A stretch of DNA of 64,000 bases from Alphaproteobacteria bacterium. GTDB taxonomy: Bacteria; Pseudomonadota; Alphaproteobacteria; UBA828. Location: contig CAXXMU010000002.1 of the NCBI GenBank assembly GCA_963667785.2, positions 800,001 to 864,000 of the forward strand, written 5' to 3'. Position 1 is the first letter of the stretch. Each line of letters opens with the position of its first letter. The notes beneath the pieces are model-generated. The model did no database searches, was not told the DNA's origin, and was given only the letters and a program-made list of their open reading frames with translations. This document shows, piece by piece, positions 4,268-44,035 of the stretch. A program made the translations under genes and the position numbers.

Positions 4268-4816
4268 TCATTCCGCCTCGTATACGACAGCCGGCGCCCG
4301 GCGCACCACCAGGCAACGCGCGATCATGTCGTGCAGCCCCTGCTTGCGGCGGGTGAAGGGAACGGCGAGGCAGGCGACGAACGCGGCGATGCCGACGATG
4401 GCGTTGAGCCCGACCACCATGCCGACTAGCCCCGGCAGATAGAGCGGCCAGCAGCGCAGGCTCGCCGTGAGCAGCGAGAGCCGCGCGCCGTCGAGATCCG
4501 TGACCCGGATGCCCATCATCCTCTTGCCGAGGGTCGCCTGGGCGGGTGCGCTCTCCTGCAGCGCGGTATAGGCCCAGAAGACGACTCCCAGCACGACCGA
4601 ACCGAGCCCGCTCAGCGAGTAGCTCACCACCTCCAGGCGGGCGCCGTCGGTCTCGGAGGCGTGCCGCGCAGTCTCGATCAGGTCGGGCCACAGGAAGATG
4701 CCGACGATGTAGACGCCGATCAGGATGAGGATCGAATCGATGATCCACGCCACGACCCGCCGCCCGAATCCGGCGGGAACGTCCTGCGCGGCGGGGTCTG
4801 TTCCCTGGTCACTCAT
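4268..4816 (-). CDS. RDD family membrane protein
   Basis: AGFGRRVVAWIID, QATLGKRMMGIRV, QGLHDMIA. Confidence 0.85.
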   Translation of the reverse strand: MSDQGTDPAAQDVPAGFGRRVVAWIIDSILILIGVYIVGIFLWPDLIETARHASETDGARLEVVSYSLSGLGSVVLGVVFWAYTALQESAPAQATLGKRMMGIRVTDLDGARLSLLTASLRCWPLYLPGLVGMVVGLNAIVGIAAFVACLAVPFTRRKQGLHDMIARCLVVRRAPAVVYEAE

Positions 4817-4860
4817 GCACGCCGCCCGGTCAGGACCCGAGCGCCGGCGCCCGAAACGAT

Positions 4861-4891
4861 GGAAGGGCCGCCCGCCTGGGACGGCCCTTCC
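4861..4891 (-). terminator. GC-rich hairpin, probable intrinsic terminator of the small mRNA
   Basis: GGAAGGGCCG...CGGCCCTTCC inverted repeat followed on the minus strand by ATCGTTTC. Confidence 0.6.
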
Positions 4892-4927
4892 CGTTCGTAC
4901 CGCGATCCGCGGATCGCGTCGGCACCG

Positions 4928-5002
4928 TCAGGCGCAGGCCCCACCCGAGGGGGAGACCCAGTTCCCGGCGACCGCCGAACGCGGTTTACGATAGTCAGAC
5001 AC
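4928..5002 (-). CDS. Small ORF (24 aa, MSDYRKPRSAVAGNWVSPSGGACA) with an extended Shine-Dalgarno sequence
   Basis: GTG start preceded by GAAAGGAGGTGATCC (5004-5018), complementary to the 16S rRNA 3' end; own promoter and terminator. Confidence 0.6.
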   Translation of the reverse strand: MSDYRKPRSAVAGNWVSPSGGACA

Positions 5003-5037
5003 TGGATCACCTCCTTTCGTTGTTGACGGACGCCTCG

Positions 5038-5066
5038 TATATGGCGCGGCCGGAAGAGCCACGCAA
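5038..5066 (-). promoter_or_regulatory. Sigma70-type promoter for the small mRNA
   Basis: TTGCGT-N17-CATATA on the minus strand, matching the alphaproteobacterial TTG-N-CATAT pattern. Confidence 0.6.
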
Positions 5067-5089: not shown

Positions 5090-5560
5090 TCAAATCGTCG
5101 TGCGGTCGCCGCTGTCCCACCACGCCTTGAAGACGGCGAAGGCCTCGTCGCCGAGCAGGCGGCGATAGGGGCGCCGGCGCTGCTCGCTCGCGGTCGCGAC
5201 TTCGCTCTCGAGGTCGCCGATGTCGACTCCGAGGTCGGCCGCATCGGACAGGAGGTTGGCGTAGAAGACGCGGTCGATCCGCGCCCACCAGATCGCCGCC
5301 GCGCACATCGAGCAGGGCTCCCAGGTGGTGTAGAGCACCGAGCCGGAGAGATCCCAGCTCCCGGTGCGCGCGCCCGCGTCGCGGATGGCGTTGATCTCGC
5401 AATGGCCGGTGGCGTCGTGGGTCTCGACCACGTTGTTCCAGCCCTCGCCGATCACCTCGCCGTCGCGCACGATGATCGTCGCACAATAGCCGCCCTCGCC
5501 CGATGCCATCTTCTCTTCGCAGAGCGCGATCGCCCGGCGCATGTAGCCTTCGTCGTCCAT
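5090..5560 (-). CDS. Zn-dependent nucleoside/nucleobase deaminase (guanine deaminase/CDA-like)
   Basis: Tail of the 5090..7204 ORF, MDDEGYMRRAIAL...; HCE and PCSMC zinc motifs; GGAGGG SD. Confidence 0.85.
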   Translation of the reverse strand: MDDEGYMRRAIALCEEKMASGEGGYCATIIVRDGEVIGEGWNNVVETHDATGHCEINAIRDAGARTGSWDLSGSVLYTTWEPCSMCAAAIWWARIDRVFYANLLSDAADLGVDIGDLESEVATASEQRRRPYRRLLGDEAFAVFKAWWDSGDRTTI

Positions 5561-5574
5561 CGCTCCCTCCTCCG

Positions 5575-6534
5575 TCACGCCTTCCGGCCCGCAACCGCCT
5601 CGGCGAGCACGCACAGGATCTCGAACATCATGGTGGCGCCCACGAGCGCCGTGTTGCCGCTGGGATCGAAGGGGGGCGCCACCTCCACCACGTCGCCGCC
5701 CACCAGGTTCAGCCCGCGCGCGCCGCGCAGCATGCGCTGCGCCTCGTAGGTGGAGAAGCCGCCGATCTCGGGCGTACCGGTGCCGGGCGCGTAGACCGGA
5801 TCGAGCCCGTCCACGTCGAAGCTGATGTAGGTCGGCCCCTCGCCGACGACGGCGCGGGCCGCGGCCACCACCTTCTCCCAGCCGAGCTCGAAATACTCCT
5901 CGATGGTGATGACGCGCATGCCGGAGCCGTAGGCGAAGTCCATGTCGTGGGCGTCGTAGACCGAGCCGCGGATGCCGATCTGCACGGTCCGCTTGGGGTC
6001 GAGCAGGCCCTCCTCCACCGCGCGGCGGAAGAGCGTGCCGTGGGTGATCGTGTAGCCGCCGAAATAGCTGTCCCAGGTATCCGAGTGGGCGTCGAAGTGG
6101 ATCATGCCGACGGGCCGGTCCTTCGCGATGGCGCGCATGATGGGGAGCGTGATCAGATGGTCGCCGCCGGCCGAGAGCGGCACCGCGCCGGCGCCGTGCA
6201 GCCGGGTGAAGAAGTTCTCGATGCGCCCGATCGTGTCGGTCAGGTCGATGGGGTTGACGCTGGCGTCGCCGCAGTCCGCCACGCGGCAGAGTTCGTAGGG
6301 GCAGATGCCGAGCGTGTGATGCGTGCGCCGCATCAGGCTCGACATGTTGCGGATCTCGCGCGGGCCGTGGCGGGCGCCGGCGCGGTTGGTGGTGCCGCCG
6401 TCCCACGGCACGCCAACCAGCGCGATGTCGACGGCCGAGAAGTCGGTGATGTGGGGCAGCCGCATGAAGGTCGGCATGGCGCTGAAGCGCGGCATGTCCA
6501 TGCCGCTCACCGGCTCGTAGAACCCCTTGGTCAT
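5575..6534 (-). CDS. Ureohydrolase (agmatinase/guanidinobutyrase family)
   Basis: GGDH, HFDAHSD, SFDVDGLDP, PGTGTP, VEVAP metal-binding motifs. Confidence 0.9.
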   Translation of the reverse strand: MTKGFYEPVSGMDMPRFSAMPTFMRLPHITDFSAVDIALVGVPWDGGTTNRAGARHGPREIRNMSSLMRRTHHTLGICPYELCRVADCGDASVNPIDLTDTIGRIENFFTRLHGAGAVPLSAGGDHLITLPIMRAIAKDRPVGMIHFDAHSDTWDSYFGGYTITHGTLFRRAVEEGLLDPKRTVQIGIRGSVYDAHDMDFAYGSGMRVITIEEYFELGWEKVVAAARAVVGEGPTYISFDVDGLDPVYAPGTGTPEIGGFSTYEAQRMLRGARGLNLVGGDVVEVAPPFDPSGNTALVGATMMFEILCVLAEAVAGRKA

Positions 6535-6564
6535 GGCGGCGCCCCCCTTCCCTGCCCGTTCGCG

Positions 6565-8091
6565 CTAGCGGTTGGTCGGCCAGCGCGGCTGGTTGTCGCT
6601 GCCCCAGCGGTTGATGCCGATATCGGTCTCGGCGCAGCGCCGCCAGACCTCGGCGAGCGGCGGGATGAACGGCCTGTTCATGGCCTCCAACCGCTCCTGG
6701 TCGGCCCTGATCTGCGGCATCATGTCGCGCAGCTCGTCCATCAGCGCCGCCTCGTCGACCCGCGTGAGCCGGCCGCTCTCGACCATGATCTCGCCGTTGA
6801 CGATCACGGTCTCCACCGAGGAGCCGTTCTCGCAGTAGACGAGGTGGTTGCGCACGTCGTTGAGCGGCGTGAAGTTGGCCGTGCGCATGTCGAGGATCGC
6901 CATGTCGGCTCGCTTGCCGGGCTCCAGCGAGCCGATCTCGTCCTCGAGGAGCACGCTGTAGGCGCCGCCCACGGTCGCCGCGTGCAGCACCTCGCCGGCC
7001 TCGAGCCAGTAGGCGTTGTCGGGCGAGGTGACGTTGTGCATGAGGCCCGCGCACTGCATCACGCTGAACATGCGGGGCGTGTCGCTGGTGGAGAGCCCGT
7101 CCGAGCCCAGCGCCAGGTTGACGCCGGCATCGAGCAGCCGGCGCACGGGGCAGAGACCGGAGCCGAGCTTGAGGTTGGAGAGTGCGTTGTGGACCACCGA
7201 GCACCGCGCCTCGCCCAGCAGCGCGATGTCCTCGTCGGTGAGCCAGACGCCGTGCGCGATGGTGGTATTGCGGTTGAGCAGGCCGAGATCGTGCATATAG
7301 CGGACCAGCGTCTTGCCGTAGAGCGCGTGGCCGGTGACCGCCTGGACCTTGGATTCGAGGATGTGGGTGTGGAAGGGCAGCCCGTTGGCGCGGGCGAACT
7401 CGTCCGTTGCCCGCATCAGGGGCTCGGTGCAGCGCTGGGGACCGGAGGGCGCCGGCATGAAGCGGAGCCTACCCGCACGGCCGTCATGGAGGGCGTACGC
7501 CTCCTCGCAGAACGCCGCGAAGTCATCTGCCGTCGGCGGCTCCATTGCGTCGACCTCGCGCTTCAGGTCGAGCGGCAGCAGGTCGTTCAGATGGACGATC
7601 GAGTCGGGCAGCCTGCGGTTGATGACGTGGCCGGAGATCGAGGCCCGCAGGCCCACATCCTCGTAGGCCTGAAAAACCGCGCCGATGGTCTCCATCGACT
7701 GGAGGGGAAACTCCAGGATGTCGTCGGAGAAGTAGGTGACCCCGGTCTTGATCGCGTCCATGGCGCAGAGCGCCGACCGCAGGTAGATCATGCGGGGCGT
7801 GAGCTCGGGCGCGCCGAGGATGCCGTAGGCGAGCGTCATCCAGAGCTCCAGCGGCATGTTGTCGTAGCGCCCCTTGGCGAAGGCCTCCGGCGTGTGGATG
7901 TGGGCGTTGATCAGTCCGGGGATCACCAGCTTGCCCTCGCTGGGGATGACGCGATCGGCCTCCGGCCGGGCCTCGCTCTCGCCGACGGCGGCGATGCGCT
8001 CGCCTTCGATCAGGATGTCGCCCCGGAAGGGCTCGCTGCCATGCGTGGGGTCCATGGCGACGATGGTGGCGCCCTCGATCAGTATCGACAT
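6565..8091 (-). CDS. Metal-dependent amidohydrolase (ATZ/TRZ/MTA-SAH deaminase family)
   Basis: PGLINAHIH, HTHILES, AHGVWL, LGSDG, IGSLEPGKRAD. Confidence 0.85.
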   Translation of the reverse strand: MSILIEGATIVAMDPTHGSEPFRGDILIEGERIAAVGESEARPEADRVIPSEGKLVIPGLINAHIHTPEAFAKGRYDNMPLELWMTLAYGILGAPELTPRMIYLRSALCAMDAIKTGVTYFSDDILEFPLQSMETIGAVFQAYEDVGLRASISGHVINRRLPDSIVHLNDLLPLDLKREVDAMEPPTADDFAAFCEEAYALHDGRAGRLRFMPAPSGPQRCTEPLMRATDEFARANGLPFHTHILESKVQAVTGHALYGKTLVRYMHDLGLLNRNTTIAHGVWLTDEDIALLGEARCSVVHNALSNLKLGSGLCPVRRLLDAGVNLALGSDGLSTSDTPRMFSVMQCAGLMHNVTSPDNAYWLEAGEVLHAATVGGAYSVLLEDEIGSLEPGKRADMAILDMRTANFTPLNDVRNHLVYCENGSSVETVIVNGEIMVESGRLTRVDEAALMDELRDMMPQIRADQERLEAMNRPFIPPLAEVWRRCAETDIGINRWGSDNQPRWPTNR

Positions 8092-8191
8092 GCGTCGGCC
8101 CCTCTCCCTGCTCTGGCAATCCTAGCAGAACTGGCCTATCTCCCCATGCAGTCGGCGGGATCGCCGCCGCGCCCGCCACGGGAGAAGAGCA

Positions 8192-9235
8192 GTGCTGCAA
8201 CTGGGCCTCGTGCTCGGCTATTCGGGCCGGGACTTCACCATCGACATCGACCTCGTCCGCGAGGCGGAATCGCTCGGCTACGAGTCGATCTGGACCTCCG
8301 AGGCCTACGGCTCGGACGCGGTGACTCCGGCTACCTGGATCCTCGCCCGGACCGAGCGGATGACGGTCGGCACCGCGCTCATGCAGATGCCGGCGCGCAC
8401 GCCGGCCTGCGCCGCCATGACCGCGATGACGCTCCAGGCGCTCTCGGGCGGCCGCTTCGTCCTCGGCATCGGGCCGTCGGGGCCGCAGGTGATCGAGGGC
8501 TGGCACGGGGTGGCCTACGGCAAGCCGCACGAGCGGCTGCGCGAGTACGTCTCGATCGTGCGCAGCATCGTCGCGCGCGAGGAGCCGGTGGTCCACGAGG
8601 GCATGCACTACTCGCTCCCCTATCGCGGCCCCGACGCGACCGGCCTCGGCAAGCCGCTGAAGAGCATCCTCCACGCGCGCCATCCGCTGCCGATCTACAC
8701 CGGCTCGGTCTCGCCTGCCGGGCTCAGGCTCGCCGGCGAGATCACCGACGGGCTGTTCCCGCTCTTCATGATGCCCGAGCGCGCGCACGTCTATCTCGAC
8801 CCGCTGACCGAAGGCTTCCGCCGCGGCGGCCACGGCGAGCGGCGCGAGGGCTTCGCCATCGCGCCCTTCGTCCAGACCAGGATCGACGAGGATCACGCGC
8901 GCGCCCTGGCCCCGGTCAAGCAGTCGCTCGCGCTCTATGTCGGCGGCATGGGCGCACGCGGGCGCAACTTCTACAACGACTACGCGCACCGGCTCGGATT
9001 CGGCGAGGCCGCCAAGCGCATCCAGGACCTCTTCCTTGCGGGCGACAAGCAGGGCGCGGCCGAGGCCGTGCCCGACGAGTTCGCCGACGGCATCGCCCTG
9101 GTCGGACCCAGGGCGCACATCAAGGAGCGACTCGCCGCGTGGAGGAAGGCGGCGGACGAGGGCGCGGTAACGGCGCTGCTGCTCGGCGGCGCGGGCCGCG
9201 ACGAGATCCGCTTCCTCGCCGAGGAGATGCTCTGA
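8192..9235 (+). CDS. Luciferase-like (LLM) oxidoreductase, F420-dependent-type subfamily
   Basis: SEAYGSDA, ARTPACAAMTAMTL, LGIGPSGPQVIEGWHG, YVGGMG. Confidence 0.85.
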   Translation: MLQLGLVLGYSGRDFTIDIDLVREAESLGYESIWTSEAYGSDAVTPATWILARTERMTVGTALMQMPARTPACAAMTAMTLQALSGGRFVLGIGPSGPQVIEGWHGVAYGKPHERLREYVSIVRSIVAREEPVVHEGMHYSLPYRGPDATGLGKPLKSILHARHPLPIYTGSVSPAGLRLAGEITDGLFPLFMMPERAHVYLDPLTEGFRRGGHGERREGFAIAPFVQTRIDEDHARALAPVKQSLALYVGGMGARGRNFYNDYAHRLGFGEAAKRIQDLFLAGDKQGAAEAVPDEFADGIALVGPRAHIKERLAAWRKAADEGAVTALLLGGAGRDEIRFLAEEML

Positions 9236-9267
9236 CCCGGAGCGGGGCTGAGCGGGAGCGGCAGGGC

Positions 9268-9930
9268 ATGAGGCGCTGGCTGCTCCTCCCGGCTCTCGCG
9301 CTCTGCGCCGCCTGGCTCGCCACCTGCGAGAGCGGGCCACCACCGTCTGATGCCGAGGGGCCGCGCACTCATCCCATCCGGGTCGCGAGCAACGGCTGGC
9401 ACACGGCGATTATCGTGCCCGCGCCCGCCCTCGCCGCGACGGGCCTGCTGCCCGAGGCGGCGGATTTTTCCGGCGCCGCCTATCTGGAGTTCGGCTGGGG
9501 CGACCGCGTCTACTACCCGGCGAAGGACAAGACCCTCGGCATGACCCTCGCCGCGGCGCTGACGCCGACGCCGGCAGTCATGCACATGGCCGGCCTCCGG
9601 GCAGCGCCCGAGGACGGCCGCGGGGGCCGCGAAGTCGTCACGCTCGCCCTGACCGAAGCGGGCTTCCGGCGCCTGGCCGAGGCGCTCGATGCGACCTTCG
9701 AGCGTCCTGCCGGGGCCGAGCGCGCCGCGCCCATCTCGCGCGGGCTATACCCCGGCAGCCGCTTCTACCACGCGCGCGGGACGTTTCACCTGCTCAACAC
9801 CTGCAACACGTGGACGGCGCGCATGCTGAGCACCGGCGGGGTGTCGGTCTCCCCGGCCGGCGTCGTCACCGCCGACGGGCTGATGTTCCGCCTGCGCGGT
9901 CTGTCGCGCCCCGCAACCGAGCCGGAGTGA
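9268..9930 (+). CDS. DUF2459-like exported/lipoprotein
   Basis: Tail of the 5503..9930 ORF; signal peptide with LATC; GWHTAI, EFGWGDRVYY, NTCNTWTA. Confidence 0.75.
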   Translation: MRRWLLLPALALCAAWLATCESGPPPSDAEGPRTHPIRVASNGWHTAIIVPAPALAATGLLPEAADFSGAAYLEFGWGDRVYYPAKDKTLGMTLAAALTPTPAVMHMAGLRAAPEDGRGGREVVTLALTEAGFRRLAEALDATFERPAGAERAAPISRGLYPGSRFYHARGTFHLLNTCNTWTARMLSTGGVSVSPAGVVTADGLMFRLRGLSRPATEPE

Positions 9931-43957: not shown

Positions 43958-44035
43958 TGGGGCGAGTGATGGGATTCGAACCCACGACCCCCGGAACCAC
44001 AATCCGGTGCTCTAACCGACTGAGCTACACTCGCC
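43958..44035 (-). tRNA. tRNA-His(GTG) with G-1 and encoded CCA
   Basis: Full cloverleaf: GCGAGTG/CACTCGC acceptor stem, CCGGA-TTGTGGT-TCCGG anticodon arm, GTTCGAATC T loop. Confidence 0.97.

Follow-up and report, generated by a model that had tools for sequence, protein, structure and literature searches.

Is an element that carries a perfect complement of the 3′ tail of 16S ribosomal RNA (rRNA), and runs straight into a 24-codon reading frame, an RNA, a peptide gene or merely the leader of its neighbour? This question is raised by positions 4861–5066, read on the minus strand, of a 64,000-nucleotide (nt) stretch of an alphaproteobacterial genome of lineage UBA828 (assembly GCA_963667785.2, contig CAXXMU010000002.1, positions 800,001–864,000). 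This stretch is called the window, and all its coordinates are given below without further reference. A preliminary description had interpreted the segment as a hidden, stand-alone small messenger RNA (mRNA) and had named the ribosome-associated rreB/rreR RNAs as possible relatives. The best explanation of the element, including the mechanism proposed below, is that it represents a divergent member of the rre/CC2171 family of alphaproteobacterial small mRNAs, an assignment we regard as reasonably probable.

Anatomy and family membership

The central feature of the element is an extended Shine–Dalgarno (SD) region complementary to the 16S tail. The 15 nt originally counted do belong to a perfect complement, but its length is really 17 nt (5018–5002), reaching the G of the start codon, because the genome's own 16S rRNA, located by pattern search and confirmed by Rfam, ends in ...GCGGCUGGAUCACCUCCUUUCU. 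The class named there exists and fits. In Hahn et al (2016; PMC5711450, cited throughout from the available part of its text), rreB and rreR are small mRNAs of ~165 nt in which 17 nt are complementary to the 16S 3′ end, the last of them being the G of a GTG start; they bind to 30S subunits, and their sORF of 14 or 18 codons is weakly translated. In addition to this common anatomy, the Rfam model RF01867 of the Caulobacter small RNA (sRNA) CC2171, which comprises 159 positions and has a gathering cut-off of 75 bits, matches 4864–5025 on the minus strand over its full length (model 1–159) with 60.6 bits and E 2.5e-12 when E-value thresholds are applied. Both the terminator and one hairpin align. 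The boxes, leader, complement, GTG open reading frame (ORF), palindrome and hairpin of the preliminary description all lie on the minus strand exactly where it had placed them, and the element is built as follows:

5061..5066, minus strand: −35-like box TTGCGT (CTTGCG including the preceding C), a putative promoter part; CTTGC is kept at equal distance in 18/18 genus-level loci
5038..5043, minus strand: −10-like box CATATA, 17 nt past the −35-like box; GCGCCATATAC is invariant across the genus
5019..5025, minus strand: CA-rich leader CAACAAC, directly 5′ of the complementarity region
5018–5004, minus strand: 15-mer GAAAGGAGGTGATCC as counted first, within the longer complement
5002..5018, minus strand: 17-nt region GAAAGGAGGTGATCCAG, perfect complement of the genome's own 16S 3′ tail, containing the canonical AGGAGG and ending in the G of the start codon
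4928..5002, minus strand: small ORF (sORF) of 24 codons, GTG (5002–5000) plus 23 codons plus TGA (4930–4928), encoding MSDYRKPRSAVAGNWVSPSGGACA
4948..4962, minus strand: 16S-tail look-alike ACUGGGUCUCCCCCU, sORF codons 14–19, which could pair with the SD and start codon at 13/15 positions
4936..4959, minus strand: hairpin P2 (GGGUCUC / GGGGCCU), in which the look-alike would pair alternatively; paired to 100% across 17 sequences
4922..4935, minus strand: small hairpin whose loop holds the stop codon UGA, forming in 4/17 genus-level sequences including the window; lineage-specific and weak
4901..4918, minus strand: 18-nt perfect palindrome, forming a 7-bp hairpin or, alternatively, pairing as 3′ strand with the 5′ half of the sORF in a long closing helix
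4861..4891, minus strand: 13-bp G+C-rich terminator-type hairpin, 99.5% paired in 17 sequences and aligned to the RF01867 terminator stem
4852..4860, minus strand: degenerate U-tract AUCGUUUCG, not called by a generic terminator rule

AGGAGG lies 7 nt from the start codon, the optimal spacing, and the −10-like box of the window ends in A; transcription is predicted to start near 5031. Directly 5′ of the complementarity region, the consensus aAcaA.c is present in all four sORF classes described below. The earlier statement that the ORF track misses the ORF entirely was too strong, as the mechanical ORF list holds the frame as a 44-amino-acid ORF (4928–5062) opened by an upstream GTG. Likewise, the proposed promoter and terminator stand in so far as boxes and hairpin are present and conserved in the genus, but a generic scan calls neither and the U-tract is weak. 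In an NCBIfam search with the 24-residue peptide, no family was matched.

The relation between CC2171 and the rre RNAs was assessed by testing RF01867 on 15 loci. Five CC2171-type loci from other lineages (Brevundimonas, Methylobacterium, Falsiroseomonas and two metagenome-assembled genomes, MAGs) score 75.5–91.1 bits, all over the cut-off, and the copy at L011, from a reduced and A+T-rich genome within the window's family, reaches 60.7 bits, under the cut-off like the window copy. Full-length matches were further obtained for two rreB-type loci (41.7–49.4 bits) and two rreR-type loci (37–40 bits), with E-values from 7e-5 to 7e-8, as well as for two ‘MSS’-type loci (~35 bits). Three of the 15 loci, two from Burkholderiales MAGs and one from Azospirillum, gave no match at E up to 0.001. 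Because the model matches rreB- and rreR-type loci over its full length, the Rfam ‘CC2171 sRNA’ and the ‘rre small mRNAs’ appear to be one RNA family, in which the window copy belongs to the commonest branch.

With rreB, the element shares the perfect 17-nt complement ending in the G of GTG, the CA-rich leader, promoter boxes of its own and a terminator-type hairpin (predicted here), a total length of ~165–175 nt, a single copy per genome and an SD that can be masked by sequence inside the sORF. In contrast, the two sORFs encode dissimilar peptides of 14 (rreB) and 24 codons, the SDs differ in their opening cost (see below), and the U-tract of the element is degenerate. Moreover, rreB adjoins a tRNA-Gly gene (PMC5711450), whereas the element lies between a deaminase and an RDD gene. 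A tRNA gene is also found just upstream of the element at two rreB-type loci (L038 and L088, at 161–231 and 184–254 of the respective locus, minus strand), in agreement with the tRNA-Gly beside rreB. The rreR RNAs of the Rhodobacter/Roseobacter group share the leader, the 17-nt complement ending in GTG and the GAAGGGUCG...-type terminator stem, but carry an sORF of 18 codons (PMC5711450) with another peptide (MSR.{3}E.GVGT...). The likeness to RF01867/CC2171 comprises an identical 5′ block CAAC..CGAAAGGAGGUGAUCCAGUGUCU, a hairpin ahead of the terminator, the GGAAGGGCC... terminator stem and an sORF class of 21–27 codons with Trp at codons 13–17. Differences concern the central hairpins, which are shorter in the element, and the third codon, which specifies Asp instead of His; consequently, the CAUUGUC/GACAAUG closing helix of the model would be replaced by pairing that uses the palindrome.

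CC2171 was detected by Northern blot in Methylorubrum extorquens (10.1101/2022.01.24.477521), and neither the Rfam label nor the available part of this preprint mentions SD complementarity or an sORF; ‘rreB’ and ‘Shine’ have 0 occurrences in that part, as does CC2171 in the available text of Hahn et al (PMC5711450). Literature on CC2171 RNA comprised, among the matches listed, this preprint, the Rfam 15 paper and the preprint of the latter, and later literature on rreB or extended SDs yielded nothing further on this class among the matches listed. The earlier suggestion of a new lineage finds little support, since analogs were already reported from four alphaproteobacterial orders (PMC5711450), and the motif is spread over many families. 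By its 16S rRNA, the organism is at most 89% identical to named records of a plasmid collection (best Skermanella; also Azospirillum and Tistrella); among five further genomes compared, one alphaproteobacterial MAG reaches 92% and the others at most 88%. The analog list of Hahn et al may already include relatives of this lineage. New here are the 17-nt count, the link between RF01867 and rre, the lack of peptide-level selection despite a kept frame, and the finding, for this branch, of a 16S-tail look-alike inside the sORF; the same holds for the probable co-option of the element as a leader within the genus.

Across the window's own genome and 40 relatives, RF01867 is found in 24/41 genomes at E up to 0.01. 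Conservation in relatives had been put forward as a check of the prediction, and the arrangement of extended SD, ORF and hairpin indeed recurs in 17/20 same-genus genomes, each with one full-length copy scoring 50.8–68.2 bits; two same-genus genomes additionally show a weak partial match of ~50 nt. As all copies in this genus score under the Rfam cut-off, standard annotation would leave them unlabelled. With one genome per family, 18 of 151 alphaproteobacterial families are matched at E up to 1e-5, 5 of them over the cut-off. An exact-pattern scan for the 17-mer followed by RTG, using one genome per prokaryotic species, gave at least 116 stretches, of which 80 loci were returned. These are nearly all alphaproteobacterial and include Rhizobiales, Rhodobacterales, Caulobacterales, Acetobacteraceae, Azospirillum, Geminicoccaceae, Hyphomonadaceae and others. 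Together with 22 elements from the relatives' genomes, they make up 102 elements that were classed by their sORF. The CC2171-type sORF (MS[HD]C..PRS.....W..., 21–27 codons) accounts for 61 of the 102 listed, that of the window included, followed by the rreR-type (13), the ATG-started ‘MSS’ type (11), the rreB-type (8) and others (9). A CA-rich leader and promoter-like boxes at equal distance are common to all four named classes. The rre/CC2171 class is real and widespread. Pieces of relatives' elements also occur in contigs of four public runs (the metatranscriptome X20, and X1, X5 and X12), which as contigs show no transcription, ends or strand.

Some members deserve separate mention. In the A+T-rich genome of the window's family (G022; 1.6 Mb, 77% complete), the element is kept at L011:1501–1668 on the plus strand with a 25-codon ORF encoding MSNCLKTKSSNIRIWIVTSNEVHFD, and the 17-nt region carries a single A-to-G change, by which a G-U pair would arise if the 16S tail were of the standard type; no 16S gene is contained in this assembly. 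The 16S tail of genome G039 is standard. Two Azospirillum MAG loci (L064 and L083, match at 401–419) combine the 17-nt complement and an ATG with an ORF of 59–60 codons that has a hydrophobic, signal-peptide-like N-terminus; L083 gives no RF01867 match, and the ATG start agrees with the one noted for the Azospirillum gene by Hahn et al (PMC5711450). The same 19-nt pattern is present at 401–419 in two betaproteobacterial MAGs (L053 and L059, from Burkholderiales and ‘Bordetella sp.’), neither of which matches RF01867 at E up to 0.001. There, it precedes similar ORFs of 24–26 codons (MRDDQG..., MRDHQG...), and the terminator hairpin that comes after them has a tail rich in T. These may constitute an independent class of extended-SD small mRNAs outside the Alphaproteobacteria, or a binning artefact.

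Conservation of the frame and of the peptide

Over the 17 genus sequences, the mean column identity of the element is 93%, and the sORF has 24 codons in 17/17. The last base of the complement coincides with the first base of GTG in 15/17, with two ATG starts and, in L019, one extra base before GTG. With ATG (L012, L013), the 17th base pair is lost while the start codon is kept, and the single nucleotide inserted just 5′ of the start in L019 leaves the frame intact. Among the 60 unique CC2171-type elements listed, the sORF keeps its start, frame, length (21–27 codons) and a stop in 60/60, with TGA used 38 times, TAA 12 times and TAG 10 times. The two other frames are free of stops inside the element in 12/60 and 21/60. 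An in-frame Trp codon is present in 56/60, at codon 13, 14, 15 or 17. As this Trp stays in frame at shifting positions, length changes ahead of it come in multiples of three.

The substitutions themselves show a different picture. Within the genus, the ratio of nonsynonymous to synonymous polymorphism (pN/pS) is 1.24 in frame, compared to 1.60 and 0.55 in the shifted frames, and 10, 14 and 10 variable columns fall on codon positions 1, 2 and 3, respectively. Across orders, three gap-free groups of 15, 6 and 3 sequences give values of 0.92–1.07 in frame and 0.82–1.32 out of frame. The residues that are conserved coincide with RNA helices, namely HC with the closing helix, and WI/WV with the 16S-tail look-alike and P2. 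Comparing ORF with RNA conservation, as proposed at the outset, thus yields a divided answer, in that start, frame, length and stop are kept but the peptide is without purifying selection. Because codon-periodic selection is lacking (pN/pS ~1, as out of frame), selection seems to act on the RNA and on its being translated, and ribosome engagement with a bounded frame, rather than the amino-acid sequence, appears to be what is maintained. A start, frame and stop that persist without peptide selection sharpen the question whether rre/CC2171 elements are RNAs or protein genes.

Genomic context and rival readings

The element is flanked on the same strand by two protein genes:

4268..4816, minus strand: RDD-family membrane-protein gene (Pfam PF06271, E 7.8e-25), starting 44 nt after the hairpin
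5090..5587, minus strand: cytidine/deoxycytidylate-type deaminase gene (Pfam PF00383, E 1.3e-21), ending 24 nt before the −35-like box

Downstream of the element, on its strand, the RDD gene is present in 18/18 genus-level loci compared to 0/84 others listed, its ATG being 13–16 nt after the hairpin in most of them and 44 nt in the window. The RDD protein is 56–69% identical in the genus, as against the 93% mean column identity of the element. Upstream, a deaminase homolog is full-length in 15/18 genus-level loci and present as remnants in 2 more. A U-tract with at least 5 T in 8 nt occurs in 0/18 genus-level elements but in 56/75 other rre-like elements listed. Since a promoter of its own would not fit in this space, the RDD gene is probably transcribed, at least in part, through the element. 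The ‘stand-alone’ character originally proposed is therefore doubtful in this genus, where the U-tract is degenerate and the RDD gene always follows closely. The fusion to RDD with a decayed U-tract provides a natural variant for testing the module in cis. Around the deaminase gene, two long overlapping frames, 5090–7204 on the minus strand (704 aa) and 5503–9930 on the plus strand (1475 aa), match Pfam only in their C-terminal ~100–170 residues (deaminase and DUF2459, respectively); they are typical open frames of high-G+C DNA, the real genes being much shorter. At gathering threshold, a tRNA gene at 43961–44034 on the minus strand is the sole Rfam match in the window.

How the kept frame is to be read depends on what is taken as the product. 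If the element were a micropeptide gene, the 24-residue peptide (MS[HD]C..PRS.....W[IV]..S in relatives) would be its product and the odd SD would tune its level. The bounded frame and in-frame Trp of the relatives listed agree with such a gene, the peptide pattern is recognisable across orders, even in the A+T-rich reduced genome (MSNCLKTKSSNIRIWIVTSNEVHFD), and Hahn et al regard RreB and RreR as conserved small proteins (PMC5711450). However, in-frame pN/pS is ~1 and not under the out-of-frame values in the genus and across orders, variation is even over codon positions, the conserved residues fall on RNA helices, and what the four sORF classes have in common is the RNA frame and not the peptide. 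Furthermore, synthetic RreB and RreR peptides were unstructured and overproduction was without phenotype (PMC5711450), so that we consider a micropeptide gene unlikely. The opposite extreme, a purely non-coding regulatory sRNA that pairs with mRNAs or titrates 16S tails and bears its frame incidentally, would account for the missing codon-periodic signal, for the filing of the CC2171 family as a gene sRNA in Rfam and for the strong predicted structure (−86.9 kcal/mol, z −2.17, 4/200 shuffles). We judge it highly improbable: in every relative, a start codon directly follows the SD with 7 nt, the optimal spacing, after AGGAGG, the frame stays bounded through GTG/ATG exchange and through changes between all three stop codons, and rreB is translated, its stability depending on the start codon (PMC5711450). 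As to the ‘sequestering RNA’ of the preliminary description, Hahn et al argue that rreB does not simply titrate ribosomes, and its overproduction did not slow growth, which speaks against titration (PMC5711450).

The context described above would also suit an element that is only the 5′ leader of an RDD-family/aminotransferase operon, its hairpin serving structure or processing. The constant RDD gene at short distance, without promoter room, the U-tract degenerate in 18/18 and the unmet generic terminator rule all point in this direction. Against a mere leader stand the homologs elsewhere, which have T-rich tails and unrelated neighbours, the discrete small RNAs of Bradyrhizobium (PMC5711450) and Methylorubrum (10.1101/2022.01.24.477521, from the part available), the full conservation of the 13-bp G+C-rich hairpin and the much higher conservation of the element compared to the RDD protein, and we accordingly rate this possibility as low. 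A leader-peptide transcription attenuator was considered and rejected: the alternatives involve only SD, sORF and palindrome, and both low-energy folds keep the 13-bp hairpin, so attenuator logic is not indicated. Finally, the 17 bases on the plus strand are identical to the 16S 3′ end, as would be expected of a stray rRNA-gene fragment or a chance match. Yet beyond these 17 bases the identity ends on either side, the flanking sequence not being that of 16S, and no rRNA family was matched by Rfam in the window. With up to 2 mismatches, the 15-mer occurs once in the window against 0.07 expected, and at least one match is seen in 5/100 shuffles; its 13-mer core is found at three places in the 4.09-Mb genome, namely the 16S 3′ end, the element and one coding-looking site without similar flanks. 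Thus, the chance expectation is well under one. Because the arrangement of boxes, leader, sORF and hairpin recurs in 17/20 genomes of the genus and in many families, including the wider alphaproteobacterial loci, chance or an rRNA fragment is refuted and retains a practically negligible probability.

Predicted folds and proposed mechanism

The preferred reading as an rre/CC2171 small mRNA is complemented by a set of predicted folds. The duplex of the 17-mer with the 16S tail amounts to a computed −32.2 kcal/mol. Opening the 17-mer in the folded RNA is computed to cost 4.7 kcal/mol, which equals the class median, compared to ~10 kcal/mol for rreB and ~11 kcal/mol for rreR, whose SD is thus far more masked (median 11.2 kcal/mol). 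The same calculation on rreB recovers the masked SD described by Hahn et al (PMC5711450). Across the class, the look-alike partner lies at ~+39 nt from the start, and its duplex with the SD reaches −20.2 kcal/mol, with 7/200 shuffles as good. In P2, one pair changes on both sides among the 17 sequences, from G-C to A-U, and three others on a single side, while the palindrome as a hairpin is 99.2% paired in the same set.

For the window RNA, the computed ensembles with masked and open SD have −86.8 and −89.1 kcal/mol, respectively. In the masked fold, the palindrome forms the hairpin. The open fold is the minimum-energy fold (−86.9 kcal/mol, z −2.17), in which the palindrome pairs with sORF codons 4–13 and supplies the 3′ strand of a long closing helix; in the model, this helix would correspond to the closing helix of RF01867. 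Most simply, the palindrome would be a strand serving both folds. The folds remain predictions, because the genus sequences are too similar for proof by covariation.

Taken together, the following mechanism is proposed. A housekeeping-type promoter belonging to the element would drive transcription from about 5031, and the RNA would expose the CA-rich leader followed by the 17-nt stretch, which could base-pair along the whole unpaired 3′ tail of 16S rRNA and lead to very tight capture by 30S subunits. As the duplex would extend into the start codon, it may hinder the start of elongation, leaving the 24-codon sORF weakly translated. Selection would act on the RNA and on ribosome engagement through start codon, frame, length and stop, and not on the peptide sequence. 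Further, the look-alike would pair either with SD and start codon or with the downstream SD-like strand in P2, so that the RNA may toggle between SD-masked and SD-open folds of nearly equal energy. In this genus, where the U-tract of the hairpin is mostly lost and the RDD gene lies at once 3′, part of the transcripts would probably read through and serve as the RDD leader. Anatomy, homology, conservation and substitution pattern are shown by the sequences; we infer the toggle and the read-through from the modelled folds and context, whereas 30S binding, weak translation and ribosome-dependent decay are proposed by analogy with rreB. This 165-nt small mRNA of Bradyrhizobiaceae co-sediments with 30S subunits and is weakly translated, pairing into the start codon keeps its translation low, its SD is masked in the RNA fold, and conversion of its start codon to a stop stabilises the RNA (PMC5711450).

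Several observations weigh against this assignment and mechanism. In a gathering-threshold Rfam scan of the window, RF01867 stays below its 75-bit cut-off (60.6 bits), and in the alignment 4/7 closing-helix pairs are non-standard and the inner, central hairpins are deleted; an equivalent closing helix built with the palindrome is predicted in place of the RF01867 one. A generic scan for sigma-70 promoters and terminators at the element gave 0 promoters and 0 terminators, the −10-like box ending in A and the tail 3′ of the hairpin (ATCGTTTCG) being too T-poor for a generic terminator call. The look-alike pairing is moderately better than in shuffled sequences, with z −2.2 for the window and −0.7 to −4.1 across the 16 of 60 elements tested, and covariation in the genus is thin, as one pair has changed on both sides and 65/500 shuffles reach the observed score. 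The frame and stop argument draws on related sequences that represent few independent events, and the 80 loci had been chosen with a pattern requiring RTG. As to the function of the class, rreB overproduction had no growth effect (PMC5711450). Moreover, two complete single-contig genomes of the genus (G015 and G016; 3.5–3.6 Mb) are without the element by covariance model and exact 12-mer, the 12-mers being present only in the rRNA end and in coding-looking sequence. Because these two complete genomes lack it, the element is dispensable in part of the genus, and it was apparently lost in this smaller-genome branch.

Beyond the single element, a joint reading can be formulated, which we put forward tentatively and regard as rather doubtful. 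According to it, rre/CC2171 RNAs would be sensors of free 16S 3′ tails and not micropeptide genes. The built-in copy of the tail would keep the SD masked up to its displacement by a 30S subunit whose own tail is accessible, and translation of the sORF, the peptide being irrelevant, would then remodel or destroy the RNA. In this genus, the module would have been recruited via loss of the U-tract as a 30S-loading or sensing leader that couples expression of the RDD-family operon to free small subunits. For such a free-tail sensor, the extended SD of rpsU in Flavobacteriales offers an analogy of principle, as it is an unusually long SD that reports the state of the 16S 3′ tail (PMC9976891, from the part available). 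In contrast to the element, rpsU is a normal protein-coding mRNA of another phylum with a logic tied to bS21, and the likeness implies no homology.

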